Source: Malacoraja senta
Lineage: Eukaryota
Assembly (NCBI GenBank): GCA_038087875.1
Contig: CM075989.1
Location: 7,504,001 to 7,568,000 of the forward strand
Direction: 5' to 3'
DNA length: 64,000 bases
Below the pieces are notes generated by a model that saw only the letters and a list, made by a program, of their open reading frames with translations, made no database searches and was not told the DNA's origin. Position numbers and translations under genes: made by a program. Below, piece by piece: positions 8,780 to 62,334 of the stretch (positions are counted from its first letter, which is position 1; each line of letters opens with the position of its first letter).

Positions 8780-8913
8780 AATGTGGCCAGTTATCTAACG
8801 CATCGTTGGCTGATGAGTGCAGTTCATCGATGCCCGTGGCTGATGATCCCCTCTGTCACTCCGATGGACAGGTCAGTAACAGGACTGTGGAGACGGAGGA
8901 TCTGCTCACAAAG
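8780..8913 (+). CDS. AKAP13: AKAP13 coding exon, 134 nt, phase 1 to 0: (x)CGQLSNASLADECSSSMPVADDPLCHSDGQVSNRTVETEDLLTK
   Basis: T-rich tract plus ttcag acceptor, AAG|gtagag donor, open frame, and phase 0 fits the next exon. Sequence conservation is weak (low-complexity region). Confidence 0.7.
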
Positions 8914-20286: not shown

Positions 20287-20304
20287 TTATTGCTTCTGTT
20301 GCAG

Positions 20305-20663
20305 GTAGAGGATGATCAGAATGTGGTGTACGAAATTGGTGGCGTGACGACAAGCAGCTCAACCGTCGGGGACCCTGAAGCCTCGGAGACCCTGGAAGGT
20401 GGCGTTTTCTTGCTCCCCACCACTGCCTTTGAAGTGCAAGAGCCAAGCCCGCAGCAGAGCCCCGCCGGCACAGAGGAGACGTCTGGGCAGCGGGACGGCT
20501 GCCCCGTGGTCTGCGAGGCGGAGGAGGAGAAGGACAGCATGGCCGAAGTGCCCACCCGCGGCCCCACCTTCAGGCCGTCCATCAGGTCGCTGTCGCCCTT
20601 CCGGAGGCACAGCTGGGGCCCTGGGAAAAACACAGGCAGCGAAACCGAGATCAACCAGCGAAG
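20305..20663 (+). CDS. AKAP13: AKAP13 coding exon, 359 nt, phase 0 to 2: VEDDQNVVYEIGG...EEEKDSMAEVP...RSLSPFRRHSWGPGKNTGSETEINQR
   Basis: ttgcag acceptor and AG|gtagga donor. Contains RSLSPFRRHSWGPGKN, matching the recalled human PKA/14-3-3 site region (Ser codon at 20611-20613). Confidence 0.95.
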
Positions 20664-21752
20664 GTAGGATGGGAAGAGAGAGGTCAGGGTGCAAGCAAGA
20701 GGTCGGCGTCCATATAACGCCATGGGCAGACACTTGTTCAATGGCAGACACTTGATGGGCAGATACCTGTTCATAATGCATCATCATCCTTACAGTGCAG
20801 AAGACATGAGCTAACTAAAGTTCATAATTTCAAGAAGCAGAATTAGGCCATTCAGCCCATCAAGTCTGCTCTGCTATTCAATCATGGTTGATCTAGCTTT
20901 CCCTCTCAACCCCATTCTCCTGCCTTCTCCCCATAACCCGTACCTATCAATAATCTGTCAATCTCAATTATCAATGCAAGGCTTTTTAGCCCATTGAGCC
21001 TGTTGCAACTTTTGGTCAGATGATAATTTGTCATACAACTTAGACACAGCCTCTTTGGCCCACTGTGTCCATACTGACCATCAAGAACTTATCTATACTA
21101 AACCCACATACCAGCATGTGGTCTATAGCCTGCTATGCCTTGACAATTCAAATGTTTGTCCAAATGCTTCTTAAATATGAGCCTCCCTGTCTCCAGATCC
21201 TCAGACAGTTCATTTGAGATTGCAACTACTCTGAGTGGAAGAGATTAATTCCCGAGTGTCCTTTCTCCTCACTTTATTCCTCAGTCTCATCTTAGACGCC
21301 TCTGCCATGGGGAAAAGTTTCTTACTATCTCACAGCTTTGGATGCCGACAACTGTGCCAATTTCAACTGTGGACCATTTTCCTGTATTCCACAATACCCT
21401 CAGTTAACAAAATTATCTTAGTTTCCTCATTAACAATTGGTGTAGCATCAGTTTTCTCCTGAAGAAGAATTCAAAATTGCTACCATTCGCATATTTCATA
21501 AGCCACTCACAGAAACATGTCATTTAGGCCAATTGGTTCATTCCAACATTAATATTTTTTGTGTGCTTCCTCATTGATATCCCACCATAACTAGAGACAT
21601 CAGGGTCACCTTTGATGTGGGTCTGAAGAAGGATCTTGACCCGAAACTTCATTTATTCAATTTCTCCAGGGATGCTGCCTGACCCGCTGAATTACTCCAG
21701 CACTTTGTGTCTGCCTGTCGCCTGACAGTTTGAATTTCTTATTCTTTTATTT

Positions 21753-22460
21753 TCATAATCATAATAATCATAATCATACTTTGTTAGCCAAATATGTTTT
21801 GCAACAAAGGAGGAATTTGATTTGCCATAGTCATACCAATAAAACAACAGAACACACAAAATACATTTTAACATGAACATCCACCACGGTGACTCCTCCA
21901 CATTCCTCGCTGTGATGGAAGGCGAAAAAAAGTTAAATCTCTCCCTTATTTGTCCTCCAGCGGTCGGGGGCCTCTAAACTTCCATTGACGGGACGATCTT
22001 GACTCCCATAGCCAGCGGCGGGCCTCCTCGTCAGGGCGATTAAGCTCCTGCATCGGGGGGAATCTCAGCTTCCCTGCGACGGGCGATCTACCCCGGGTTG
22101 GGGCTAGTCGAACGTCGTGCAGGTTTTGGAGCTTCCCGACGTCGGTCTCAACCCGAGACTGCGAGCTCCTTGATGTTAAAGTCCGCAGGCCGCGGTTGGA
22201 GCATTGATCCCAGGCAAGGAATCGGCTCCGATTGTAAGTCCACGCCCCACGGTGGGGCTCAAAGTTAGTCCCGAGCGAGGCCTCCAGCTTCATGATGTTA
22301 GGCCGCAGAGCGACCGGAGATACAACCCTGAAAACAATCGCATCTCCGGCAAGGTAAGAGAATGGAAAAAAGTTTCCCCCGACCCCCCCGCCCACATAAA
22401 ACAAACCAGAAAACATGAACACATACTTTTTAAACACACTAAAAACAACAAAAATAAACG
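21753..22460 (-). mobile_element. CpG-rich non-autonomous retroelement, unclassified
   Basis: Minus-strand (ATT/ATG)n tail. Shares the CCTTCCATCACAG.GAGGA...GTGGTGGATGTT block with 22664-23469 and about 49525-49780. Confidence 0.55.
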
Positions 22461-22663
22461 TTAATGAAGACTCGAGTTCATGATCCAGTCCACATTGATC
22501 CAACGTTACCATTCACAGCTCCCATTTCCCTTGCTGGAGTAATCAATTATTTCTCTGTAGGTTTGCGACAGAACCATTTAAAGCACACGATTGCTTCATG
22601 GTAACTAATAATTACACAGACCTGACTTGCAACATCATCTGTCCATGGGGCAGCAAGGTGGCG

Positions 22664-23469
22664 GCGCTGTTGCACAGCTGCGGCTCGCCTGCAGTCCGTC
22701 TGTTTTTACTTTTGTTGTTTTCTTTTGTCCTGTTTTAGTTAAATTTTAGTTATTGGGTTGTGTGGGGTGGGTGGGGGTGAAACATGATTTTTGTCTCTTC
22801 CTTCGGGGGAATGCGACTTTTTCTTGTCGTATCCCCCTTCTCTGCCTCCGTCTGCGCTGAGGCCAAAATGGCGGAGCTGCCGGCCTCCAACTCCAACTGC
22901 GACCAACCGACCTCGAGGCTCCGGAGGCAGAGCCAGGACTTACCAGCGCGGGGCTGGCCGGCTGCGGTGGCGTTCCGGCGGTGGTGACCGAGGACGCTGG
23001 TGGCGACCTGAGTCCGGAGGCTCGGCCGCGGGCTCGGAGGACGACATCGTCGGGAGCTCGCAGGTCACAGGTGGGTGACCTGTTTTTCTGGACCTCCCGC
23101 AACTACAGCTGCGTCCGCTGGACTGGAGGGCGGCAGCTTCGGCCACCCCGGGCCGCGGAGTTTGAACCAGCCCGTCGCGGACGGAGCACGGATTCAGCCG
23201 CGGGACTGACTTACCATCACCCGGCGGGGTCACAACGTCAGAAGCCTGGATCGCCTCAGCGCAGAGGGAGAACAAAGAGGGAAGAGACAGAGACTTTAAG
23301 ACTTTTGCCTCCATCACAGTGAGGAGGTGCCTGGTGAACTCGCTGTGGTGGATGTTAATTTGTGTTTATTGTGTGTTTTGTTATTTTATTATATGTATGA
23401 CTGCAGGCAACGAAATTTCGTTCAGACCGAAAGGTCTGAATGACAATAAAGGAATCTAAGTCTAAGTCT
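22664..23469 (+). mobile_element. CpG-rich non-autonomous retroelement inserted in a SINE head
   Basis: GC-rich body and TGACAATAAA plus (TCTAAG)n tail. Flanked by AAGGTGGCG (22655-22663, 23470-23478), after which the V-SINE resumes. Confidence 0.6.
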
Positions 23470-23761
23470 AAGGTGGCGCAACAATAGAGTTGCTGCCTTA
23501 CAGCGCCAGAGACCCGGGTTCGATCCTGACTATGGCTGCTATCTGTACGGAGTTTGTACATTCTCCCCGTGACCTGCGTGGGTTTTCTCCGGGCGCTCCG
23601 GTTTCCTCCCACACTCCAAAGATGGAGAGGTTTGTAGGTTAATTGGCTTCAGTAAATTGTAAATTGTCCCAAGTGTGTAGGATGGCCCTAGCGTACGTCG
23701 TGATCGATGGTTGGCGTGGACTCGCTGGGCCAAAGGGCCTGTTTCTGCACTGCATGTCTAA

Positions 23762-24093
23762 AGATTCAGATTCAGATTCAGATTCAACTTTATTGTCATT
23801 GTGCAGTGTACAGTACAGAGACAACGAAATGCAGTTAGCATCTCCCTAGAAGAGCGACATAAATATGAGCAGTAAATAAATAAATCTAATCTAATAAATC
23901 CTGGTGGGAGGAGTGTCCGGGGGGGGGGGGGGGGGTGTGATTGGCAGTCACCGAGGTACAGTGTTGAGTAGTGTAACCGCCGCAGGGAAGAAGCTGTTCC
24001 TGGACCTGGGTCCGGCAACGGAGAGACCTGTAACGCCTCCCGGATGGTAGGAGGGTAAACAGTCTGTGGTTGGGGTGAGAGCAGTCCTTGGCA
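23762..24093 (-). mobile_element. Rex1/Babar-type LINE 3' fragment
   Basis: Minus strand DCSHPNHRLFTLLPSGRRYRSLR...NSFFPAAVTLLN and a (TGAATC)n tail. A related piece lies at about 52560-52870. Confidence 0.7.
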
Positions 24094-24773
24094 TTCCCTC
24101 CACAGATGCGGCCTGACCCACTGACTTCCTCCTGGACTTTGTTTACATTTTAAATTCACCGTCTACTGGAGTTTGAATATCTGGACTTTTCATACTTAAA
24201 CTTCTGTAGTCAAGGAAAGAAAACTTGGATAGACACAAAAACCTGGAGTAACTAAGTGGGTCAGTAACATCTCTGGAGAAAAGGAATAGGTGATATTTCG
24301 GGTTGAGACCGTTCTTCAGACTGACTGAAGAGGAGCGAAAGTGGGATAGCATAGAACTATTGTGAACGGGTGATCGCTTGTTGGTGTGGTCTTGCTGGGC
24401 AGAAGGGCCTGTTTCAATGCTGTATCTCCAAACTAAACAAAACTTGATTCAAGTGGCTATACTTCCAAACGTCTTGTCCTTCGTTGTGGTAGAGTTTACT
24501 GATGCTGCTGAAGTTAGTGAAGAATCAACCAAGGTAGCTCAATTCTTAAAAGTCATGGTATTTGTGGATGGCTTTGAATATCAGTTAGACTAAATGGACT
24601 GAAACTTGTCCATCCATCCATCCATCCCAAAGTAAGCTGTTCCTAGTTTTTTCTTCTTTGTGTAAAAGTTTAAAAGTGAAATATCCAGATATTTAAACCC
24701 TGGATAATCCTTTAGTGTCTGCAACCTTTAGTTACTGAAAAGCAATCGTGTGACTGAGTGGTTCTGTCACTTA

Positions 24774-25501
24774 AAGGCCTGTCTCACGGGTATGCGGTTA
24801 CTGGCGGTGAAGCAGGAAGTTGGGACCGCTCGTGGACCGCCAGAGACTGCGAGGTCGGTCCCACGCACATCGCCGGCACCGTACGGTGTTGGTCCCAACA
24901 CCGCACGGTGCTCACAAAAACCGACAACGTTCAAAAATGTTGTCCTACCGCACAGCCGCCGCCAGTGCGGCACGAGCACCGCCACAGCCGCCGCCAGTGC
25001 GGCACGAGCACTGCCACAGCCGCCGTGAGCACCACTAGCACCGCCACAGCCGCCGCCAGTGCGCCATGAGCACCACTAGCACCGCCACAGCCGCCGTGAG
25101 CACCACTAGCACCGCCACAGCCGCCGCCAGTGCAGCACGAGCACCGCCACAGCCGCCGCCACAGCGCCGCGATCACCACTAGCACCGCCACAGCCCCGCG
25201 ATCCGAAATGACGTCATCGCGTAGCGCGTCGCGTTGCGCGATGTCGTCATCACCCGACGTCGCGCTCGTGGGACAGGCCGTGCGGTGATCACTCGGCATA
25301 CGCACGGCAACAGCTTCCGGTAAGGTTTAATTTTTTTTTACTTACCGCAAGCTCGTGGGACCGGCTGTACGGAGATCACTCGGCCCCCGCGCGGCATCCG
25401 TGCGGCGTTCCCGCGGCATATGCACGGCGCTCTTGCGGTAGCCGCGCGGTCCCCGCTTCCGGCGATGCCGCGCTTCACCGCCTGCCTGTGGGACAGGGCC
25501 A
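24774..25501. mobile_element. CpG-rich PIF/Harbinger-type non-autonomous element with internal minisatellite
   Basis: Imperfect terminal inverted repeats (AGGCCTGTCTCAC... / ...GTGGGACAGGGCC) flanked by TTA/TTA. Tandem GCACGAGCACCGCCACAGCCGCCGCCAGTGCG-like units at about 24950-25195. Confidence 0.7.
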
Positions 25502-26273
25502 TTACAGAGAAAGGAATTGATCTAATTTCAGTGACAGATTATTCTGGGAAGGGAGATGGCAGCTGTAAACAAGAGCATTGGATCAATACAGACTACATCA
25601 TGAACTGAACACGAGTTGTCTGCATTAAGGAAAGCACAAAGTGATGGAGTAACAAAGTGGATTGGGCGACATCTTTGGAGAGAATGGAGATTCAGACTGG
25701 AGAAGGTTTCCGACGTGAAACATCACCTATCCATTCCCTCCACAAGTCCTGGCTAATCCACTGAGTTACTCCAGCACTGTGTGCTCTGCTCAAGATTCCA
25801 GTATTTGCAGTTCCTTGAGCCTCTCCCGTGTTCAATATTTGAAAAACACCATAAACAGAAATTTAACATAACAGTCCGGCAACAGGAGCCATTTTGTGGG
25901 AGGGGACCGTTTTCCCAGAAAAATGAAACATCAAAGGTGACCTGATGTCCCAAGTTACAGTCTGTACGGATCTGAAAGAGGAAGCACACAAAAATAAGAC
26001 ATTCATGTTGGCATGGATGATTTGGGCCAAATGACATGTCTCTTTCATTGGCTTATGTAGCATGAGATCACAGCAAACAAAGAGGAAGATGTGGTTTCAA
26101 TTGTTGTCTGATATCTTGAACTTCAGACAGATTGGATGCTGAACTATCTTTGCTTGGTGTTATCCCTTGCTGTTGTTTCTCGATTACTTTTTGTTCTAAT
26201 TTTTCAGCCTATCTCGCTTCATTCATTTCTTTTCTCCATTGAATGATTGTTCATCTTCATGGTTCATTTTCAG

Positions 26274-26327
26274 TTCTGTGGGAATGCTTGGTGAAATCAT
26301 AAAGTGGCTGCCAATTCATAGAAGAAG
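26274..26327 (+). CDS. AKAP13: AKAP13 alternative exon A, 54 nt, phase 2 to 2: (S)SVGMLGEIIKWLPIHRR(S)
   Basis: ttttcag acceptor and AAG|gtaata donor. Resembles recalled human SSMRVLGDVVRRPPIHRRS. Confidence 0.88.
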
Positions 26328-26523
26328 GTAATAGACAAAGCAAAATAATGGATTTTAACATCCTGTTTTCACATATTTGGCTACAGCTCTGATGTTCAAA
26401 AATAATCCAAAACTCTCAAATAGAGTCTTCGAGTGTGGAAACAGGCCCTTCGGCCCAAAGTGCTTACATCGACCAACATGCCCTATCTACATGCCCTAGT
26501 CTCACCTGCCTGCGTTTGGCCTA

Positions 26524-28069
26524 CAGTGCCCTCCATAATGTTTGGGACAAAAAAACATCATTTATTTATTTGCCTCTGTACTCCACAATTTGAGATTTGT
26601 AATAGAAAAAATCACATGTGGTTAAAGTGCACATTGTCAGATTTTAATAAAGGCCATTTTTATACATTTTGGTTTCACCATGTAGAAATTACAGCAGTGT
26701 TTATACAAAGTCTCCCCATTTCAGGGCACCATAATGTTTGGGACAGAGCAATGTCATGTAAATGAAAGTAGTCATGTTTAGTATTTTGTTGCATATCCTT
26801 TGCATGCAATGACTGCTAGAAGTCTGCGATTCATGGACATCACCAGTTGCTGGGTGTCTTCTCTGGTGATGCTCTGCCAGGGCTGTATTGCAGCCATCTT
26901 TAGCTTATGCTTGTTTTGGGGGCTAGTCCCCTTCAGTTTTCTCTTCAGCATATAAAAGGCATGCTCAATTGGGTTCAGATCGGGTGATTGACTTGGCCAC
27001 TCAAGAATTGAAATTTTTTTAGCTTTGAAAAACTCCTTTGTTACTTTAGCAGTATGTTTGGGATCATTGTCTTGCTGTAGAAAGAATCGCCGGCCAATGA
27101 GTTTTGAGGCACTTGGATAGGATAGCAGATAGGATGTGTCTATACACATCAGAATTCATTATGCTGCTACCATCAGCAGTTGTATCATCAATGAAGATAA
27201 GTGAACCATTACGTTCAGCAGCCATACATGCCCAGGCCATAACACCCCCATCACTGTGTTTCACAGATGAGGTGGTATGCTTTGGATCTTGGGCAGTTCC
27301 TTCTCGCCTCCATACTTTACTCTTGCCATCACTCTGATATAAGTTAATCTTCGTCTCATCTGTCCACAAGACCTTTTTCCAGAACTGTGGTTGCTCTTTT
27401 AAGTACTTCTTGGCAAACTGTAACCTGGCCATCCTATTTTTTGCGGCTAACCAGTGGTTTGCATCTTGCAGTGTAGCCTCTGTATTTCTGTTCATGAAGT
27501 CTTCTGCGGACAGTGGTCATTGACAAATCCACACCTGACTCCTGAAGAGTGTTTCTGATCTGTCGGACAGGTGTTTGGGGATTTTTCTTTATTATAGAGC
27601 AAATTCTTCTGTCATCAGCAGTGGAGGTCTTCCTTGGCCTGCCAGTCCCTTTGCGATTCTCAGTCTCATAATGGCTTATTTGACTGCCATTGGCACAACT
27701 TTGATCCTCATGTTGATAAACAACGTAAAAGTTTCCAAAGGTGTTGGAAAGACTGGAGGAAAGACGACGTGCTGAGAGCTCTCTTATACCTGCATTAAGG
27801 AGGAAATTAAACACACCTGAGCAATTACAGACGCCTGTGAAGCCATTAGTCCCAAACATTATGGTGCCCTAACATGGGGGGACTATGTATAAACACAACT
27901 GTAATTTCTACATGGTGAAACCATAATGTATAAAAATGGCCTTTAATAAAATCTGACAGTGTGCACTTCAACCACATGTGATTATTTCGATTACAAATCT
28001 CAAATTGTGGAGTACAGAGGCAAATCAAAAAACGATGGGTCTTTGTCCCAAACATTATGGAGGGCACTG
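26524..28069 (-). mobile_element. Second copy of the same Tc1 family (DD34E), inserted in a CR1 tail
   Basis: TA-flanked CAGTGCCC termini. WTDETKIN / QQDNDPKH / WPSQSPDLNPIE with 34 residues between the second D and E. Frameshifts and an internal deletion near 27660. Confidence 0.95.
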
Positions 28070-29913
28070 TATATCCTTCTAAACCTGTCCTGTCCGTGTA
28101 CCTGTCTATATGCTTCTTAACGTTGCAATAATACCTGCCTCAACTATCTCCTCCGGCAGCTCATTCCATAAACCCACCACCCTTGGTGTAAAAAAAGTTA
28201 CCCCTCAGGTTCCTTTTATCATTTAACAATTATTTAGCATTTCTGCAAAATGTTCTTTCACTGAACCTTGGTCTCTGGTATGACAATTGGAACTGATCAA
28301 ATATCAATTTCTTAAGTAGACATATTTCTCACCCTAAACCTTGCAGCTATGAGATTGATAAATCATGCTGCCACAGACCAATGACTTTCAGTTGTCCCTG
28401 TATGTAACACATGGCTGACTCATGTAAATATTTGTCTTTGTTTCACTTCTTGCTTCATTTCTGCAATGGCTTTTGCAAAAATTCAACACATTTCCTGGGC
28501 GTCAAACCAGCGACTTCCCCAGGAAGGTTGAAGGTCTTGGTGGACATTGGTGGGCATTCATTGTCTAGACTCGAGATGCTCCCTTTGGTAAGACAATCAG
28601 GGAGAGCTAGCAACTAGACACCAAATGAACTGCAGGTTTACAAAAAGAAAGATAAAATGCTGGAGTAACTCAGCAGGTCACGCAGCATCCTTGGAGAACA
28701 TGGATGGGCGACATTTCCGATCGAGACCTTTCTTCAGACTGAAAAAGGATCCTTCACTTCATTCGAAACTTCACTTATCCATGTTTGCTGGGGATGCTGC
28801 CTGAGACTGAGTTACTCCAGCACGTTGTGTCGGATCGAACTACCACCGTTTGGGTGTTGTTCCTTGTCCTGCCAGTCCTCCATCATTCATCTCCTCCATA
28901 CTCCAGAGGAGTGGTGATGCAGAAGTCTGTGAGGTCTCTAACTGTAAAATTACACCCACCTAGTTTATTAATCAAGAGCAGGGTTTTGTTTTTGCAAGTA
29001 TTTTAAATATAAGCTTAATTGGCAAAGTTTCATAACAACCTCAATTGGCACAGTTTTATTTCTAAACTAATTACTGCCACGTTTTAACATTTTCTGGTAA
29101 CTGAATTGTTTAACAAATGAGATAGGAGCACATAACATGTATTTAGTCTCATTTGGGATAATACAAGACATTATCTGATCTGAATAGCATGCAAAACTGT
29201 ACCTCGGTACATGAGACAATAACAAATCGAAACCTATTTTGTAATTTTAGTCATTTGATGCATTATCATTAAGGTACAAAATGCACCTAAATTGACAACA
29301 GCAGTAATAATTCTTGACACTAAGTTGTCTTTTGCTGCCCATTTTTCCATCCCAGCACTCTGTGCAGGTCATTGAACAGCATATTTTTCACATATCTCCG
29401 GGCATTTTGATTGATCAACAGTGTTATACAAGTCTACATTGTGACATTGACAAAGCAAAGTGCATGGTTGATATTACAATGACAACACATCACTTTTGTT
29501 GGCCGTAAAATTAAAGCAAATTTTCCAAATAGGCTCTTGAGCATGTTCTAAAACCAAATGTTTAAAAATGTTTTAAAAAGATAATTTAAAAAAAAGATAA
29601 AAACAAATGTTAAACTGTTAAAAAATAATATCTTTCAGACTTCTGTCAGTGGTGGCAATGTCTGAACTATCTGGCAGAAATTGTTAAGGTATCAACAATA
29701 CTGACAGCACATTGGATTGTGCAATTTAAGAAGATAATTTGGCCAAGCATTTTAACCAACTTGAAAAACTTCAAGTCAACAAACATTTATGAACCTCCTA
29801 TCTTGAATGTGGTTGCTGTCATTGCATTAACCTCAGCTGAAATTTCCTGTATATGAGCTTCTTTCCTCTTGCTATTTCCTTCCTTGTTCTGATCTTTCTC
29901 CGCTTATTTGTAG

Positions 29914-29976
29914 TGTGAGCTGGTGTCCTTCTGACAAGCTACCCTTTGTCACGGGGTGTGACTTTAGTTGCAGCAG
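29914..29976 (+). CDS. AKAP13: AKAP13 alternative exon B, 63 nt, phase 2 to 2: (S)VSWCPSDKLPFVTGCDFSCS(S)
   Basis: Long pyrimidine tract plus tag acceptor, and CAG|gtatgg donor. Resembles the recalled human variant segment MSWCPSGVQYSAGLSADFNYR. Confidence 0.82.
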
Positions 29977-32570
29977 GTATGGACCGTACCATGTGCTGTC
30001 TGAGAGTGTAACTATCATTTACTTATTTGAAGTTTGAAATGGAAAGCTGGGGAAATTTAGTAAATACATTTTGGGTGCAACTTAAGATGACAAATTCTGT
30101 AAATAAAGGAATTAACACCAAAATAACACTTGAGTCCACAGCAAATGTGTTGGTTCTTGAACAGAACAAAGAAAAGTATTTCTGCATTAGGGTATTTTTG
30201 TGCACAATGACATCTAGAAGAGAGAACTATCTTCAGTTCGTATTTTTTTTGGGGGGGGTGGGGGGCTAGAACTTGTGAATAGGGTGGGGGAGGGGAAATG
30301 TACTTGAAACTTTTCCCAGGTAATATTTTGAGGAGCAACACGGGTGACTTTGTATTCCCATGGGGAAAGCAGTATTTGGGAGCTAGGTCTTTTCCTTATT
30401 TTGGGGTGGAGGCAGGGGCATGTGACCTGTTACAGTTGCTGATCAACCCCCCCCCCCCCCCCCTCCTCCTTTGTGGTCCCACCAATGTTTTTATAAGCAG
30501 TGTTGTCTGCCCCTTACCTCACATGGGGCCGGCAGCCGGGAGATGATGCTGCTCGTGGCCTGTCCCAGCAGCCCGCTGGAACGCGTGCCATCACTCGGAC
30601 TAACCCACCCTTATGTACAGTTTGGCCCATTCAGAAGATGTGTGAAGAAGGCAGAACATGCATCTCCACACTTTCAGTGATATGACAAGCATTTCCACTG
30701 GCCCCAATTAAAGAAAATCACATTGTACAGGACTATGTAAAGAAAAAATGTGGAAAGGTAGTGGAATGAATTCCTAGAGTTTTGGCACTGAAACCTGAAC
30801 ATTCACTACATTTGTTTCTGTTTGTCTCTGTCACTTATCCCTTTTCTCCCCATATCTCCCTTCCCTGAGTCCTGAAGGATCGTTTCAATGACATTTACAC
30901 AGGCATGGGAAGTGTGCACCAGATCTTTAAGTAATTGGTTTGTACTGAGGACTTCTTCTCAGCATCCTTGCTCTTCTATTTCAGGAATGCATGCAAGTCC
31001 ATAGACAGACTGATGGTCTGAATATGGACCAGCAGGCAGGCTCAATGGAAATCATCAGTGGCACTTTCACATTCACGTCAAAATGTTGTTTTGTTTAGAT
31101 ATACAACATGGAAATGGGCTTTTCAGCCAACCTAGTCCACACCAATCATGGATCACCCATGCGCACTAGTTCCATGTTAATTCCACTGTCTCATCCACAC
31201 CCCACATACTAGGGGCAATTTACTGAGGCCAATTAACCGACCAACCCCCACATCTTTGTGATGTGGGAGGAAACCTGGAGCACCCGGAGAAACCCCGCCA
31301 GCACAGGGAGAACGTGTAAATTCCACACTGAGAGCACCCAAGGTCAGGATCGAACCCGAGTCTCTGGCGCTATGAGGCAACCGCTGTAGCAGCTGCACCA
31401 CTGGGTTGCACTTTTGTTTTCCTGTCTAGTACTGTGAGCAGTGGTGCACATATCATCACTGTTGAATGCACTTCTCCAAGTTTCTCCGCATCCTCAGTTG
31501 CGTTGAGAGCTTCAGTGTTAAATATGCTTTTGTTATTGAATTTGAATTCCTTCGTGGCTCAGGGTATTGACACTAATCTTGGTTCTGATCACCATTCTGT
31601 AGTTTTCCCACGCACAAATATAGTAAAATGCTTTTTTTCTAAATCATTTTTCCTCTCCCACCTGCTTTGCCAAAAGCAACACAGCTTTCCTCAGTAAAAT
31701 CAGGATTCTAAATATACAGCAGATCAGTTGGCATCTAGAAAAGAACAGAATAGGTCTGTATCCAATTGTGGGTCCCAGTGCAATGTATCAATGTTATCTT
31801 CAGATATTATGGGTGATATCAACGCTGTTCCACCATCAAGGGGCAACGTTGAATATTTTATTGGTCATAGATCATAGGGTCTTAGTGCCATACAGTACAG
31901 AAAGAAGCACTCCAGATCACCATGTCCATGCCAACCATTGAACCTATCTACACTAGTCCCATCTACCTGCATTTGGTCCATAGCTTTCTAGGCTTTGGTG
32001 ATTTGGAGGCCCATCTAGATGCATCTTAAACGGTTGTGAAGGAGAGTACCTGCCTCACTTACCACCTCAGGAGGCGTGAAAACTGCCAACCTTACCGGTC
32101 TGGCCAAATGTGACTTCACATCCATCAATGTGGTAGATTCCTAACTACTGTCGGAAATGGTAAGTTTGGCAAGGCCAGGGAAAGGAAAAGCCAGAGTGAA
32201 ATGAAGTGTCTGCCCATGATGTCCACATCTCATCAATGATACTTTCAAACTATGAAAGCTTTCATTACTTTTTTTGTCCATTCCCTTGCATTAAATGCCA
32301 GCCTATCCACCATCATCTCTATCCTTATCTATCGCACAAGCCAATTCATTCCCCTAATTCTTCCCACCCACTCTCTCTCGTATCCATTATTATTTCCTCC
32401 CCTGACCAAAACCATGTCTGTTTAATGCAAGTTGTTGAAAATTGATTATTTGAAGACAAATATTTTTCGCTAGCCTTTGAAAAGTTTGCCAAGGGGGTAG
32501 TTGGTGGGGGTTATCTCTGTTGTTTTCCAAACATGCAAAGGTTACTTGAACCTGTCCTCTGTGTGTTCAG

Positions 32571-32769
32571 TTATAGCCTGGAAGGACTGACGGGCAGCAG
32601 CAGCGGTGTGACCAAGGAGCCACCGCACACCATGGAGTCGGTTCTGCAGAGTACGCGGGACCCACGGCGTACTCCAGTGGTCGGCACCGATGAGCGCGGC
32701 TCACTCGTCTCGCTGACCGAGGAAGAGATGGAGTCGGACCACAGTGAGGGCAGCGTGTTTGATAACTCG
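32571..32769 (+). CDS. AKAP13: AKAP13 coding exon, 199 nt, phase 2 to 0: (S)YSLEGLTGSSSG...ERGSLVSLTEEEMESDHSEGSVFDNS
   Basis: ttcag acceptor and TCG|gtaaat donor. Carries the SLEGLTG and SLVSL.EE..ESD motifs. Confidence 0.93.
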
Positions 32770-34518
32770 GTAAATCGGATTGGAATGCAAACGGATGGTT
32801 CTCACGACCAAAGCTCGGGGAATTGAGCTCTTATTCATGTTAGCTGGACGGCAACGTGGTTTACTGCAATCGGGATGTGCTGCTTAAAACCTGGGCTATG
32901 TGTGCTCAAGCTAAAGGAAGACATTTTGCCCTGAATGCATCATTGTCTGAAGATGCCCAAAGGGAACTCAAATTCCACAAAGAACTTTTGACTGTGGTGT
33001 TAGTGCAGGAACAGGAGGAGACCACCCCACCTCTGATCCCTTCCCGATCTTCAATGAGACTTTGTTAATCCAATATCTATCTCTCTACACCTGTCTTTTC
33101 CCCAAAACACTCAACGCATTTGGTTAACAAAGAAATCAGCAGACTCAGATTTAAATCTAACTCTTGGCTTTGTCACCAATGGTTGTTTGTGGAAGAGTTC
33201 CTACAAAATAATTCATAACCTCACATTTGAAAGGCACCCTTTAAATGTTTTAGATTACACCCTCTCCAACAGGTTATCTCTATTTTCATTAATACTTGAA
33301 TCAAATTATTATTTAACCTTTATAGGCTTCAGGTCAATAGAACTTTAGTTTGGTTGCAAATGCTCATGTCCAGGGTGTGGGCTTGCAAGCAAATGAAGTA
33401 TTATTGTCTGTCCCTCATTGCCCTGGAGAAGACGTTGAGCCTCTGACACAGTCTCCCATCATTGTCCATTGACACTGACCCTTGGATTCCTGCTATCCTT
33501 CTGAGAAACACTGGGAGCTTAACCATCCAAGGTTGGCATAAGCTTCCCAAGATGTGTTGTCTGAAACTCTTCTCAGTGCACTGAATGTAGTCTAACCCAG
33601 ACTTTGTACAACTGAAAGATGATTTCCTGCGCCCAATGTTGCTCGTCAGGTCAGGTCTGGGGGGAGTTCCCCCCGCCACGGGTACCATGTAATCCCGTGC
33701 TACCTGCTCCATGGTCAGATAGTCGGCGACTAAACCGTCTCCCCCACCTGATTTGCCAGGCTGTGGACCCCCAGCAGGACCAAAAACAAGACCTGTCAAA
33801 GAACGGATGAGCTACCAGCGAGCCAACGGCCATTCACACTTGAGTAGAAGTTGCGATCACTGTCGTACATAGCATAGTAAGGAAGGATGATAAAGCACAC
33901 ACACCAAAATCCTATACTTCCAGCGGCGGAAGTCCGCAGAAACGGGAGGACGGAGATGTGTGGTGCGTCCGTCACCGTTCCCTTCGGAAACCAGCACCAC
34001 TGCGTCGGTAATGTTTTCAACGATGATGATGAATGTTGCTCGTCCCCATGTGCAGACATCAGTCATTAGATCTTTGATAATTTTCCCTTCCTGTCCATAT
34101 TGTAATGTTCTTTGAACAGGAACCCTTTGGATCTCTACTTTCACCATCGTCCAAAATCTCCATTCCATCCCCCTTTGGTTCAAGCTGATGGCCTCACTTT
34201 TATAATCAATTTATCACAGTTCCACTTATTTATATGCATAAACTATTAATACCTTTTTCTTCAGTGTTGGAGCTGAGGAAATGCTCAGCACATTTTTACC
34301 ACATTGTAGTTACTTCATCTGCTATTTTAACAGAGGCTGTGTTTTAAATAGCTGCTGTGGTTGACTCACAGTCAAGTCTATTGTTTAGGTGACCATCTGG
34401 GCTTCAGCTCCGGTGCACTTAATATTAACCATTTGGGAGATGCAGGATTTGCCTACGACTTTACACACAATGCCATTGGGATAAGAATTACAATTAAACA
34501 CACGTTGTTTCCCTACAG

Positions 34519-34603
34519 AATTTGCCCAGGACTCAGCTGCATTCTGCTCCTCCATTAACAAAATCCCTCTCGCTCCAAGCCATCAGTGCTCCAAGCACAG
34601 ACA
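34519..34603 (+). CDS. AKAP13: AKAP13 coding exon, 85 nt, phase 0 to 1: NLPRTQLHSAPPLTKSLSLQAISAPSTD
   Basis: ccctacag acceptor and A|gtgagt donor. PLTKS.SL..IS.P..D matches recalled human PLTKSISLMTISHPGLD. Confidence 0.88.
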
Positions 34604-36230: not shown

Positions 36231-36938
36231 TGTACCTGCATGCTTACTATGAAAGTAAGCATGCAGGTACAGCAGGCAGTGAAGAAAGCGAACGGCATGT
36301 TGGCCTTTATAACAAGAGGAATTGAATATAGGAGCAAAGAGGTCCTTCTGCAGTTGTACAGAGCCCTAGTCAGACCACGCCTGGAGTATTGTGTGCAGTT
36401 TTGGTCCCTTAATTTGAGGAAGGACATTCTTGCTATTGAGAGAGTGCAGCGTAGGTTTACAAGGTTAATTCCCAGGATGGCGGGACTGTCATATGCTGAG
36501 AGAATGGAGCAGCTGGGCTTGTACACTCTGGAGTTTAGAAGGATGAGAGGGGATCTCATTGAAACATATAAGATTGTTAAGGGCTTGGACACGCTAGAGG
36601 CAGGAAAGATGTTCCCGATGTTGGGGGAGTCCAGAACCAGGGGCCACAGTTTAAGAATAAGGAGTAAGCCATTTAGAACGGAGACGAGGAAACACTTTTT
36701 CTCACAGAGAGTGGTGAGTCTGTGGAATTCTCTGCCTCAGAGTACGGTGGAGGCAGGTTCTCTGGATGCTTGCAAGAGAGAGCTAGATAGGGCTCTTAAA
36801 AATAGCGGAGTCAGGGGATATGGGGAGAAGGCAGGAACGGGGTACTGATTGGGGATGATCAGCCATGATCACATTGAATGGCGGTGCTGGCTCGAAGGGC
36901 CAAATGGCCTACTCCTGCACCTATTGTCTATTGTCTAT
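36231..36938 (+). mobile_element. Young CR1-clade LINE 3' fragment (open 202-aa ORF2 C-terminus) nested in an older CR1 (about 34790-37090)
   Basis: KKANGMLAFI...LYRALVRPRLEYCVQFWS...FFSQRVVSLWNSLP, followed by the GGGCCAAATGGCCT hairpin and (CTATTGT)n tail. Confidence 0.92.
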
Positions 36939-39900: not shown

Positions 39901-40762
39901 GAGATTTTATTGCCAGGCAACAAAAAAGGAGTGAAACGCGGTCTTGTTTTTCAGGCAGGGATCATCACAGCCCATCTGCACCACCCAATGAACCCTTACA
40001 CCACCATCTTTGTAAATTGCTGTCCGTTTCCCCGTTTCCAATGTCCCTGAATGCACGCTGCCTCTGGTTTCTCTCCCACCTTTGCCTCACACCCTTGGTT
40101 GAGTCTTTCATGTTGAGTTTCATCCAAGTCAAGGCACTGTGATGGCAGTAACAAAAGCCATAAATAGCTGTTTTAGCATTGTGCCAGTCATCTTACGTGG
40201 CACGTTCGTCTTGTTGAACTAAACTGAACCCAACAGCACCATGGCCCCCATGTGTTACAAACTGAGTATGCTAGGTCAATCTTGTTGCCAAGTAAACACA
40301 AATGTTACAATTCAAGTGGACATAATCTAGAATTTTTACATTCCTATTAATTTTGTTAACTAAAATCCAAGTGGCAGCATTTCTTTTGATAGAGATCAAT
40401 GAGGAGAATGGATTTTGTAGACTTGGTCCTGATGAATTTGTAAATCATGCCCACTGTAGGAGTCAGTTGACAAATTGGCCTCTATTCTTCTCCAATTGCA
40501 CCATTACCTGGGACAATTCAGTTGATATGAAAAATCTAATTAGAAGGGACTTTGAAGTGTCTCCAGTCTAGGTAACTCAATCTCCTCTCTGGCTTGTTAC
40601 AATGAGCACCAATTACCAGCTGTAAATCTAATCAGAGCAGCTAACCTGCATGCAGCCTTGTCCTGTGTGGCTCAGTGCTTTGATCCAGTATGTGGTGGAG
40701 GAACAGCAATAGCAATTTGCTTCCTTTCAGTAAAATGCATGCTCTAATTCTACTGTTAACAG

Positions 40763-40879
40763 AACCCGGAAGGACCAAGCCCAGGAAGAGAATCTCCTTT
40801 TCCTGGAATATTTCTCCACTCCTTCCTAAGCCTAAAACTCTCTTTTCTCTTGGTTCCTCAAGTGATGATGAGTCAGATA
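40763..40879 (+). CDS. AKAP13: AKAP13 symmetric (candidate cassette) exon, 117 nt, phase 1 to 1: (K)PGRTKPRKRISFSWNISPLLPKPKTLFSLGSSSDDESD
   Basis: aacag acceptor, strong A|gtaagt donor, open frame, and phase fits both neighbours. Confidence 0.75.
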
Positions 40880-50234: not shown

Positions 50235-50773
50235 AACAACATCCTTCCTATAGCAGGGTGACCTAAATGGAACACAATTCTCCAAATGTGGCCTCACCAA
50301 CACCTTGTACAACAACTGAAGGTTTCGGCCCGAAACGTTGCCTATTTCCTTCGCTCCATAGATGCTGCTGCACCCGCTGAGTTTCTCCAGCTTTTTTGTG
50401 TACCTTGTACAACAACGCCTTGCACAGGACTAAATTGGAATTGTGAAGGAAGGATGCTGATTTAGACCAAAGATAGACACACAAAGCTGGAGTAACTCAG
50501 CCGGTCAGACAGCACCTCCGGTGAAAATGAATAGTTGACATTTTGGGGCGAGATTTATGATCTGTTAGCTCAGTTACTTCCTTACGCCAACAGCCACTTC
50601 AAGTTGTTTCTTTCTCTCTCTGTGTACACAATATCCATTGCATTTTACTCATTTGTATCGCTCTTTGACCATGTAAATTATTCCTGTTAATGCCTGTTGC
50701 ACAATTATAGAAATGCTTCAGTGGATCTTGAATTGGACGTCATTTAAAGCTATTGTTTGCTTTAATTACACAG

Positions 50774-50909
50774 CATCTCAGAGGAGGGTAATAGCCAGAT
50801 GCCACCGAGTCCGACACGAAAAGATTCGGAAGGAAAAAGCAGCACCAAAGTGTATCGGACGTTCAGCTACATTAAGAACAAAATGTCAAGTGGAAAACAC
50901 AAGAACAAG
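50774..50909 (+). CDS. AKAP13: AKAP13 coding exon, 136 nt, phase 2 to 0: (S)ISEEGNSQMPPSPTRKDSEGKSSTKVYRTFSYIKNKMSSGKHKNK
   Basis: acacag acceptor and AAG|gtatgg donor. Close to recalled human KDSEWKSGTKVSRTFSYIKNKMSS. Confidence 0.95.
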
Positions 50910-54411: not shown

Positions 54412-55904
54412 GTAGGTGAACGAGTGATTCAGGGCGACCCTGGATCTCCTACTTTGTTGCCATTTAGGTTTGGGAGACGAAAACTTTAATCTTCCTGATT
54501 GTAAATGTCTTTGTGTTGGCTGCCGTTAAGTTGGTTTCCTGTTTATGGTCTGTGTTGTAATAGACTTGCATCTTCAGTGTTAGCGTCTAACATTTCAATG
54601 CAGCTGGTTTTTTTCTTAAAACCTTTCACATATGATTTCGTTTCAGTTCCTGATGGTTAAAAGTGTTCAGTGCTGTTTATTTAAATATAAGCTTCTGATT
54701 TACAAACTAAGTGGAAAACAAAGTACCTTCCAAACTCGATCTGCGAGGCTGTTGTCTTTTTGTAAAACACCAGATCTTGTCGGATTTTACATTGAGCACA
54801 ACTGTCTGGAGAAAACATAGCGTTACATCAAATGAAATGCAAGAGCAGTTATTTGTGCAGCAGTAGTTGTGGTGCAGCTAACACAAAAGTGCAAAACAGA
54901 ACAAAAATGTTCAAAATGACAGCAGGGGCTTAAGGGGCCTTCGACTGGTCCCTGCTGTGTCAAGACAAATTGTTGACGTTCATGTCACAGTAATGGAACT
55001 AGAGATAGTTGTTTCTGGATAAATTGTTCCGTTTTACAAATGGAAGTGTACAAAGCCCAGCAGAATACAACTTGTGACACAGCACAACTTGTGGTCTTCA
55101 CACTTGGTAGTCACAGTGTTCATTAGCATTTGGCTGCATTTCAAAAAAGGACACAAGGTGCTGCAGTACCTCACCAGGTTATCCTGGACCAGCACAGTGG
55201 TGCAGCGTTAGAGCTGCTGCCTACATGTCCCTTGGTTTGATCCTGAGTAGTATGAGTGCTGTCTGTACGGAGTTTGCACGTTCCCCCCCGTGACCGCAGG
55301 GGTTTTCTTCTGGTGCTGCAGTTTCCTCCCACACTCCAAAGAAGTGCAAGTTTGCAGGTTAATTGGCTTTGGGAAAATTGTAAATTAGCACTAGTGTGTA
55401 TGTAGGATAGTGTTAGTGTATGTGGTGATCGCTGGTCAGCGTGAACCCGGTGGGCCAAATGGCCTGTTTCCACACCGTTTCTCTGAAGTCTAAACTCTGC
55501 AAGTTCTGGCAGCATCTCTGGAGATCATGGATAGGTGTTCCAACCCTTTGCCTATCAAAAATCCGTTGTGCTTTGTCCTGCCTCTCCCAGCTTTCTTCTC
55601 CCCTCCCCAACCAGTCTGAGGATGGGTCACGACCCGAAATGCTGCGTATCCATGTTCTCCAGAGATGCTGCCTGACCCGTCGAATTATTCCTGCATTTTG
55701 TGTCCTTTTGGCTGCATTTCAAGTTGTGTGCAGCGGACAAGCAGGTGTCAGAATGAGTTAATCGCTTGCCCTGACTCTAAGCTCCTGCTCCACAGTTGCC
55801 CTGAAGCGTGAGATAGATTTGGTCCCCCTGGTGTTCTGATACACTGTCTTCGGAGTGTGCACCCACTAGTGCAAAACTCCACACAGTCTTCTGCATGTGG
55901 ACTG

Positions 55905-56545
55905 CAGGGGGCAGGTTATTATCTCAATGGGGTTAGGTTAGGCAAGGGGGAGGTGCAGCGAGACCTGGGCGTCCTTGTCCACCAGTCACTGAAAGTTGGC
56001 GTGCAGGTACAGCAGGCAGTGAAGAAAGCTAATGGAATGTTGGCCTTCATAACAAGAGGATTTCAGTATAGGAGTAAAGAGGTTCTTCTGCAGCTGTATA
56101 GGGCTCTGGTGAGACCACATCTGGAGTATTGTGTCCAGTTTTGGTCTCCTAATTTGAGGAAGGACATCCTTGTGATTGAGGCAGTGCAGCGTAGGTTCAC
56201 GAGATTGATCCCTGGGATGGCGGGACTGTCATATGAGGAAAGATTGAAAAGACTAGGTTTGTATTCACTGGAGTTTAGAAGGATGAGGGGGAATCTTATA
56301 GAAACATATAAAATTATAAAAGGACTGGACAAGCTACATGCAGGAAAAATGTTCCCAAAATTGGGGGAGTCCAGAACCAGGGGCCACAGTCTTAGAATAA
56401 AGAGGAAGCCATTTAAGACTGTGGTGAGAAAATACTTTTTCACCCAGAGAGTTGTGAATTTGTGGAATTCTCTGCCACAGAGGGCAGTGGAGGCCAAGTC
56501 ATTGGATGGATTCCTCCTGCACCCATTTTCTATGTTTCTATGACA
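55905..56545 (+). mobile_element. CR1-clade LINE ORF2 3' fragment
   Basis: QRDLGVLVH...LVRPHLEYCVQFWSP...QRVVNLWNSLP; internally deleted tail. Confidence 0.9.
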
Positions 56546-60276: not shown

Positions 60277-60412
60277 GAGAAGGAGAAAACAAAAGAGAAG
60301 GACAAGAAATCCACAAATGGCCATGCATTCACTGCCATCTTAGCATATGGCCCACCCCAATGTCACCAGTGCAACAAGAGTATAACCACCCGCGAGGCAT
60401 ATCTCTGTAACA
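60277..60412 (+). CDS. AKAP13: AKAP13 coding exon, 136 nt, phase 0 to 1: EKEKTKEKDKKSTNGHAFTAILAYGPPQCHQCNKSITTREAYLCN (first half of C1 domain)
   Basis: ttttag acceptor and A|gtaagt donor. H-x12-C-x2-C-x11-C pattern of the C1 finger of Lbc-family GEFs. Confidence 0.93.
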
Positions 60413-62334
60413 GTAAGTAACTGGTTTGCTTCACTAGCTGTTATAAGAAATATTCTTTGTGTAAAATGCTGGAGGAATTCCGTGGGTCTGGCAGCTTGTG
60501 GGAAGCGGATGGGCAGACAATGTTTTGGGCCGAGACCTTACTTCAGACGGAAGCAAGGAAGCAGTCATTCAGTGTGGTTCAGTTCAGAGAGGCAGCATGG
60601 AAAACAGGCCTTTCGGCCCATCAAGTCCGTGCTGACCATCGCAATAGTTCTATGTTATCCCACTTTCTCAACCACACCCTACACACTGGAGGCAATTTAC
60701 AGAGATCAATTAACTTATAAACCCGCACACCCATGGGACGTGGGCCGCAACCCGGAGCACTTGGAAGAAACCCAAGCAGTCACAATAAGAACTCTACACA
60801 CGCAGTACCCGAGCTCAGGATCAAACCTGGGTCTCTGGTGCTGTGAGACAGCAGCTCCACCAACTGTGCTATCTGAAGAAGGATCCAGACCTGACACATT
60901 GCCTGTGCATTCCCTGTCCCATTCGCTAAGTTCCTCCAACATGTTTTGGTTTTGTTCAGGATTCCAACATCCACAGTCTTGTGTATCTCCATCTCCTTTA
61001 ACGTCATGCTTTTGAATCCATGACTTACTGACACTTCACTCTGATGGCACATTGAAGGACTATCACTGTCAAGCTTAAAGTTGTGTCTTATTTTCAAACA
61101 ATGCGTAGAAATGATATCTTGGATGGTTGTCTCATATATTGCAATTTAAATATTCTCCTTCGTGTGTGTGTGTGTGTGTGGGGGTGGGGGGGGGGGGTGG
61201 GGGGGGTGTGTGTGTCAACCCACTCCTCCAACAGTGACTTTATGCTTATCCCACTTTTTAATCAATTAGAAACATAGAAAATATGTGCAGGAGGAGGCAC
61301 TTTGACCCTTCGAGCCAGCACCGCCATTCATTGTGATCATGGCTGATCGTCCCCAATCAATAACCCGTGCCTGCCTTCTCCCCATATCCCTTGATTCCAC
61401 TAGCCCCTAGAGCTCTATCTAACTCTCTCTTAAATCCATCCAGTGATTTGGCCTCCACTGCCCTCTGTGGCAGGGAATTCCACAAATTCACAACTCTCTG
61501 GGTGAAAACGTTTTTTCTCACCTCAGTCTTAAATGGCCTCCCCTTTATTCTAAGACTGTGGCCCCTGGTTCTGGACTCGCCCAACATTGGGAATTCATCA
61601 GGTGTCACTCGTATTACAGCTGTCACGTCTCTTCACCTCAGGAATTGCCTTTCTATCTTTCTCTTTATGCTCTTCAGTACTATTTGTAACAAAACTTCTC
61701 ACTATATCTTCTAACTCATTGAGCACTGCTACTGTGACTCAGGTGCTGAGCAAGTGTAAGTTGTTGTTGTTGCAGTAACAAAAGAATATGATATGATTGA
61801 GGCACAAGTCTGGGTCCGTGGTCGAGTATTGTCAACAGGCTGTACTCTCGACATTCATGTGGGCAAGCATTGTCTGTCGGGCCCACATGTTGAACTGTGG
61901 CCTTTTGTCTGCAAGTATTCTGCATGACACGAGACGCTGCTCTCGTTTAATCTTTTAACAGCATCGTTGCTGAAATTAACTTCCAATGCGGGGTGTCTCA
62001 CTTCTTTTCCACACTTGGTATTGAATACAGCCGCAGCAAAGCTCCTCAAGCTGATGCACATTTAGTCCCAGAGACTTTTGTGACCTTTAATAAATCTGAT
62101 TGATTACAATCAGACTGGCTATGTGAAGCGGTTGCTGAATTTGTAGCAGATACTGTACTTTAACCCCATCACTGTACATAAGCTTGTCTTGATGTTAGAG
62201 CAAAAAAAATTCACTCTCGTCGATCTCGTCTAAAGCAGTTATCTTAGTTTTAGTTTAGTTTACAACGTGGAAACAGCTCCTTCCGTCCACTGAGTCCGCA
62301 CCAATGATCACCCATACACTAGCTCGATCCTAGA

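Follow-up and report, generated by a model that had tools for sequence, protein, structure and literature searches.

What do two very short exons contribute to a large signalling scaffold when they are placed beside one of its known phosphorylation sites? The question is raised by a stretch of 64,000 nucleotides from the skate Malacoraja senta (assembly GCA_038087875.1, contig CM075989.1, positions 7,504,001 to 7,568,000 of the forward strand; hereafter the window), which holds part of the gene for AKAP13 (AKAP-Lbc), a scaffold with RhoA guanine nucleotide exchange factor (GEF) function. A first-pass annotation made from the letters alone had read the two exons, here called A and B, as alternatives of which A builds a protein kinase A (PKA) site that B takes away. 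Our analysis leads to a different answer. A and B are very probably two cassette exons, symmetric in phase 2 and independent of each other, that lie in the linker shortly after the S1565 site and have been kept since the jawed-vertebrate ancestor, and the overall explanation that we favour, with some reserve, is that they alter basophilic phosphosites next to S1565. The exons on which the argument turns are these, in window positions:

20305 to 20663, plus strand: exon U, the upstream flank with the RRHSW site; 359 nt, phase 0 to 2, RRHSW codons from 20602, ending N-Q-R followed by AG.
26274 to 26327, plus strand: cassette exon A; 54 nt, phase 2-2, AG acceptor, donor AAG/GTAATA, ending H-R-R followed by AG.
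26317 to 26325, plus strand: the H-R-R codons at the near-invariant end of exon A, from the codon list.
29914 to 29976, plus strand: cassette exon B; 63 nt, phase 2-2, AG acceptor, donor CAG/GTATGG, starting x-S-W-C-P and ending with Ser.
32571 to 32769, plus strand: exon D, the downstream flank (SLEGLTG exon); 199 nt, its second full codon being the junction serine (S-Y-S-L-E-G), which is residue 1602 in the gorilla A-only isoform.

The gene is the AKAP13 orthologue, as seen from its collinear exons and its RRHSW site. With thorny-skate AKAP13 (P0383) as the query, tblastn gave eight collinear pieces on the plus strand between 8.8 and 60.5 kb, and all named matches of the homologue search were AKAP13 or 'hypothetical'. 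The DH-PH Rho-GEF module is present in P0383, a relative with 96% identity, and in the skate gene it would lie past the end of the window. Exon U shares 115 of its 119 amino acids with Amblyraja and Leucoraja AKAP13, 96 with the stingray and 51 with the chimaera, and its RRHSW is the counterpart of S1565, the PKA and 14-3-3 site of AKAP-Lbc (Diviani 2004, as cited in PMC10099770; published sources are cited here for the passages, tables and supplement rows that were accessible). For this region there is no matching solved structure, and exons U and D have no Pfam match.

Exon A was found by tblastn of P0383 against the 64-kb window (E=2.3e-4) and exon B by tblastn of stingray AKAP13 (P0395; E=4.6e-5), both in the expected order and interval between U and D. 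Both stand at the annotated positions, with the lengths, phases and peptides given for them earlier, and both have AG and GT ends. Each has a 15/20 pyrimidine tract and an AG/GTA donor; exon A is identical at 15 of 17 residues to the annotated skate exons and at 12 of 17 to stingray A, and exon B at 13 of 20 to stingray B. Because both are of symmetric phase 2 and of length 3n, every combination stays in frame, and the four splice forms (skip, A, B and A+B) are all open in the window sequence. A phase-2 exon filter on the 11.9-kb intron between U and D left three candidates, namely A, B and A with an upstream acceptor, a weak result as the filter was devised after A and B were known. The in-frame upstream acceptor would lengthen exon A to 120 nt (26208-26327), a form absent from all relatives retrieved. 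Outside its H-R-R end the skate exon A has drifted, with K-W-L (26296-26304) where Amblyraja and Leucoraja have K-R-L and most sharks K-R-P. Counts of splicing-factor motifs around A and B, made without statistics, did not stand out against those around U and D.

We followed the pair through 456 proteins obtained by homologue searches and cluster look-ups, two of the searches giving the best 120 of 528 and the best 120 of 1092 matches, and parsed them between RRHSW and SLEG. The models are automatic annotations, and gorilla serves as a proxy for human, whose AKAP13 was not among the proteins retrieved. There were 284 isoforms with A+B, 96 that skip both exons, 44 with A only and 11 with B only, the remainder being aberrant (2), without a parsable exon D (11) or without RRHSW (8); these counts are not frequencies, because two of the three queries were themselves A+B forms. 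The pair is present in chimaera, sharks, rays, sturgeon, paddlefish, teleosts, amphibians, reptiles and mammals. Being found in cartilaginous fishes as well as in bony fishes and tetrapods, it is older than the split between the two groups, as had been proposed from the skate sequence; its orthologues run from chimaera to gorilla, and the gorilla isoforms carry the peptides that the annotation gave for human. No jawless vertebrate appeared among the named homologue matches, where one set of matches was unnamed and no search was aimed at jawless loci.

The exons also have a record in the literature. In mouse, AKAP13_54 and AKAP13_66 (Bland et al. 2010, PMC2995044, Table S1) have sequences that we read as exons A and B: they stand in the same order, the 54-nt exon ends H-R-R and the second exon starts M-S-W-C-P-S, whereas the mouse second exon is 66 nt long and ends with Arg, and skate B is 63 nt long and ends with Ser. 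The same table classes the event as 'multiple cassette', with reverse-transcription PCR sizes of 283, 229 and 163 for both exons, exon 66 only and neither; during differentiation of C2C12 myoblasts inclusion goes up from 3 to 40 and from 7 to 49 (columns as we understand them from a partly visible header), and in the accessible part the event is listed without a peptide-level function. A human 54-nt AKAP13 exon (chr15:86201768-86201821) is mis-spliced in Fuchs corneal dystrophy and reported for myotonic dystrophy type 1 (DM1), its proportion spliced in (PSI) being 0.80 in controls and 0.57 with the repeat expansion (PMC4358235); like skate A it is a 54-nt cassette in AKAP13, and the two are equated by gene and length alone. 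Changes in AKAP13 splicing or phosphorylation appear as well in PMC12248823, PMC9922982 and bioRxiv 10.1101/2020.07.22.215897, whose accessible parts do not name these exons. The pair and its regulation are thus already documented, by the splicing tables for mouse and the RefSeq models for sharks and rays, which makes the skate copy an ordinary one. What it offers is a comparison: what jawed vertebrates have conserved leaves two short motifs as candidates for function, the H-R-R end of A and the S-W-C-P start of B.

Are A and B mutually exclusive? Transcripts with none, one or both of the exons are seen in orthologues. An A+B isoform exists in 14 of the 18 cartilaginous species retrieved (read from the printed string for Stegostoma), the four without any B being Amblyraja, Leucoraja, Carcharodon and Scyliorhinus, and the stingray Hypanus, the marmoset, the ground squirrel and the koala each have all four forms. 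Mutual exclusion means one exon per mRNA, and what is found instead are the many A+B and skip isoforms counted above, the mouse products of 283 and 163 bp and, in a relative, a skip join. Neither of the mechanisms that could enforce exclusivity is in place: the intron between A and B has 3586 nt, which leaves no steric closeness, and the A+B form is open without a frameshift, as both exons are multiples of three. The either/or part of the earlier model is already refuted for orthologues.

In the skate lineage itself only the skip join is visible, and here lie the points against independent cassettes. Among 21 runs that matched the upstream exon we guessed 15 to be RNA of relatives, and four were aligned to 20300-32800 at 85% likeness; one 808-nt contig of a relative (run X2, guessed RNA) joins U straight to D, and no junction read of A or B was seen in these data, in which intronic repeats swamped the joints and the bin of exon A. 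Exon B is in none of the 11 retrieved isoforms of Amblyraja and Leucoraja, and in Bufo all nine retrieved isoforms skip both exons. The bin with exon B was covered only in X2 (0.45, which would equal a depth of about 3 over 63 nt) and stood at 0 in three of the four runs; none of the contigs listed lay there, and nothing is concluded from it. It is possible, although we find it doubtful, that skate B is rarely used or decaying, so that the locus works in practice as a single cassette with A in or out. The lack of B in the two skate genera contrasts with most stingray and electric-ray isoforms, the terminal Arg of skate B has changed to Ser, and the intron that separates A from B holds a transposon with long inverted ends. 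Yet skate B is intact in its frame, its AG and GT ends, its pyrimidine tract and its S-W-C-P, and it is about as close to its stingray counterpart as exon A is; the great white shark likewise has no B isoform (0/8), so that annotation gaps may explain the missing skate B.

Taking A and B as independent cassettes, we turned to what their ends build. Exons U, A and usually B end with Arg and AG, while B and D begin with T and x-Ser, so that the junctions into B and D rebuild R-S-x-S. Exon A, through its H-R-R, makes this H-R-R-S-x-S, that is HxRxxS, on whichever exon follows, and in the skate window the motif occurs in the A and A+B forms only. All 46 distinct A peptides end H-R-R (two aberrant models were dropped by length); with divergent representatives added, H(-5)/R(-3) is found in 71 of 72 A contexts (70 HRR, 1 HKR, against 1 QRR), the sole K substitution falling on the free position of the motif. 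His at -5 is absent from all 23 contexts without A, where U supplies the position, and follows none of 91 B segments. The divergent representatives (65 of 68 used, three left out as aberrant or missing D) include 34 with A, among which His is kept in 33 and the residue before it peaks at 10. In the gorilla A isoform, of 2810 amino acids, the only HxRxx[S/T] is at residue 1602, with RRHS at 1565, and it is absent from the skip isoform. For exon B, the start S-x-S-W-C-P is found in 27 of 27 divergent copies; in the skate the junction word is R-S-V-S-W-C-P, and the start of B gives R-x-x-S-W-x-P, a shape that the five proteins checked otherwise have only at S1565. A tandem acceptor at 32577, 6 nt into exon D, would if used cost two residues and disrupt the spacing of R-S-x-S; in a wider set of 516 proteins, 2 are annotated with this form (P0412 of the epaulette shark and P0226 of the coqui frog).

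These motifs decide against a PKA toggle. The junction words RRSYS and CSSYS on which it was built are indeed in the window, but RRSYS does not fit RRxS, because its arginines are at -4/-3 of the last serine and not at -3/-2. RRxS occurs exactly once in each of the four forms (as the RRHS of exon U) and RxxS twice, and the skip form keeps Q-R-S-Y-S. That exon B removes a site holds in this skate, where it gives C-S-S-Y-S; elsewhere the Arg at -3 is nearly always kept, with 98 R, 2 K, 2 F and no S as last residue of 102 distinct B-containing segments, and R in 85 of 91 in the set of 516 proteins. We therefore take C-S-S-Y-S as a lineage trait, and the sequences indicate that the effect of B in most vertebrates is to add a site, not to take one away. 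The existence of A-only and B-only isoforms, the second Arg added by A and the Ser end of skate B speak for a pair of alternatives in which A makes a PKA site that B removes, and PKA can act on non-optimal R-x-x-S sites; set against the A+B isoforms of cartilaginous fishes and mouse, the constant RRxS count and the Arg kept by most B segments, such a model is very improbable. What survives of it is the broader notion of a second phosphosite near S1565 that is tuned by splicing, with HxRxxS as the motif instead of the PKA consensus.

HxRxxS is the consensus of the LATS kinases (PMC5362547) and of the NDR kinases (PMC9711861). By sequence, exon A sets His at -5 and turns the next junction serine into H-x-R-x-x-S, and exon B brings an extra R-S-x-S-W-C-P serine shaped like the S1565 site. 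In most vertebrates B keeps the downstream site as well; skate B, having lost its last Arg, swaps the site and does not add one. In the mechanism that we propose, regulated inclusion would change which basophilic kinases can act beside S1565, with LATS/NDR as the most specific case in forms that contain A, and the altered kinase access would tune the RhoA-GEF scaffold. That such phosphosite tuning is the selected function of A and B we hold to be somewhat probable. A tentative place only is given to LATS/NDR as the putative kinases acting at the A junction, and we are equally cautious about the full scenario, in which exon A would have been, since the origin of jawed vertebrates, a splice switch that makes AKAP13 a putative LATS/NDR substrate, H-R-R licensing 1602 and B offering a second, S1565-like acceptor. 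The reading of exon A through an HxRxxS junction motif seems to be new, in that we found no paper on this junction of AKAP13 or on S1602 in a search outside which most subscription papers fall; a review in which both AKAP13 and HxRxxS occur treats them separately.

The 14-3-3 mode I consensus is RSxpSxP, and all four forms have its R at -3 and its S at -2 (R-S-x-S). Mouse brain shows phosphorylation of the junction serine (localisation 0.80, one supplement row of PMC9711861), and human residue 1602 is among the top five predicted 14-3-3 sites (PMC10099770). Several observations weigh against phosphosite tuning as we propose it. The Pro at +2 of mode I is absent, its place being taken by Glu (exon D) or Cys (exon B, with Pro at +3), and one of the 72 A contexts, the QRR, has no His. 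In NDR1/2 knockout brain the junction phosphosite is not lower (log fold change +0.27, P 0.14, adjusted 0.49; PMC9711861), where the mouse tryptic peptide is common to all isoforms and cannot separate them, and where LATS is still present. The double mutation S1565A + T2467A abolished 14-3-3 binding in HEK293T cells (PMC10099770, in whose accessible part the plasmid isoform is not seen), so that 1602 is not sufficient for binding there. No kinase assay of the junction site was found in the open-access literature, an absence of weak weight, and by title or abstract none of the open-access papers listed on AKAP13 with LATS, NDR1 or YAP deals with this site. Residue 1602 is not among the at least 8 AKAP13 rows listed in the in vitro kinase table of PMC6642169 (kinases up to Erk5, so that LATS, NDR and PKA may fall outside these rows), nor among the at least 9 listed in the supplement of PMC10400926, and the supplements of PMC12636402 and PMC10099770 gave no match.

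The same conserved ends could also be RNA signals (donor context, purine-rich enhancer), the peptides then being spacer or interaction sequence and HxRxxS a by-product, which we consider unlikely. The AG exon end at all four upstream junctions forces a Ser/Arg codon in phase 2, exon A ends in nearly identical purine-rich bases in skate and mouse, and the junction site does not respond to the loss of NDR1/2. Because phase-2 AG ends force the Ser codon and the end of A is purine-rich in both species, part of the conservation may be at the RNA level; splicing, and not the protein, may be what preserves the terminal R-S and the purine-rich exon end, which counts against our explanation too. However, the codon for His is 9-11 nt away from the donor, a position outside the donor consensus, and it is kept while the preceding residue varies freely. 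U and B share the AG end and yet never supply His at -5, and the invariant S-W-C-P of B lies at the acceptor side.

Muscle differentiation regulates the two exons, and repeat-expansion disease involves mis-splicing of a 54-nt exon of AKAP13, yet we found no function assigned to them. If true, the action of LATS/NDR on the A junction would link splicing and the Hippo kinases to a RhoA GEF scaffold. AKAP13 promotes YAP activity via Rho and actin, which is the premise for reading this connection as a feedback; its depletion lowers YAP/TAZ activity in a manner described as LATS-independent (PMC5362547). Splicing during muscle differentiation would then switch a Hippo-kinase feedback onto the RhoA GEF on or off and, if the human 54-nt exon is A, this splicing would be disturbed in repeat-expansion disease.

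The window has further features, of which the first lies in the intron between A and B:

26522 to 28071, minus strand: remnant of a Tc1/mariner-type transposon, with Tc3 helix-turn-helix and DDE_3 Pfam matches in different frames.
34522 to 34602, plus strand: further AKAP13 exon (tblastn bounds, as for the next three).
40762 to 40854, plus strand: further AKAP13 exon.
50769 to 50909, plus strand: further AKAP13 exon.
60316 to 60414, plus strand: further AKAP13 exon, which starts the C1 domain.

The transposon remnant starts 195 nt downstream of exon A and has 223-nt inverted ends that are 92% complementary. It is not part of the switch; as a speculation, its inverted ends could pair in the pre-mRNA and affect the splicing of A and B in this species. 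About 0.8 kb upstream of exon A, 24780-25500 is GC-rich with short tandem repeats. The AKAP13 exon at 8781-8913 has an internal ATG at 8830 that matches the start of short isoforms (~1430 amino acids) in the sawshark and whale shark annotations, a hint that a conserved internal promoter lies upstream. The exon at 40.8 kb lacks a counterpart in the chimaera X1 protein, and it may be a further cassette. The segments 909-1848, 36231-36848 and 55812-56543 hold a second remnant of Tc1-like type and a pair of open frames; the two frames look like reverse-transcriptase ends of long interspersed nuclear elements and gave no Pfam match.

How does the locus compare with known systems? The S1565 site of AKAP-Lbc (PMC10099770) is the RRHSW of exon U, 37 residues before the junction serine, and the B junction repeats its R-x-x-S-W-x-P. 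Unlike S1565, the junction serines have no Arg at -2, are not RRxS, and are optional or dependent on context. The A forms have the HxRxxS of the LATS/NDR substrates YAP (S127; PMC5362547), Raph1 (S192; PMC9711861) and GEF-H1 (S265; PMC6461807). GEF-H1 is a Rho GEF of the AKAP13 family, a single Drosophila orthologue standing for both, and NDR2 binds it and promotes its phosphorylation (PMC6461807). Unlike in YAP, Raph1 and GEF-H1, the HxRxxS of AKAP13, a candidate substrate site, is put together from both sides of a splice junction and is present only in forms that contain exon A.

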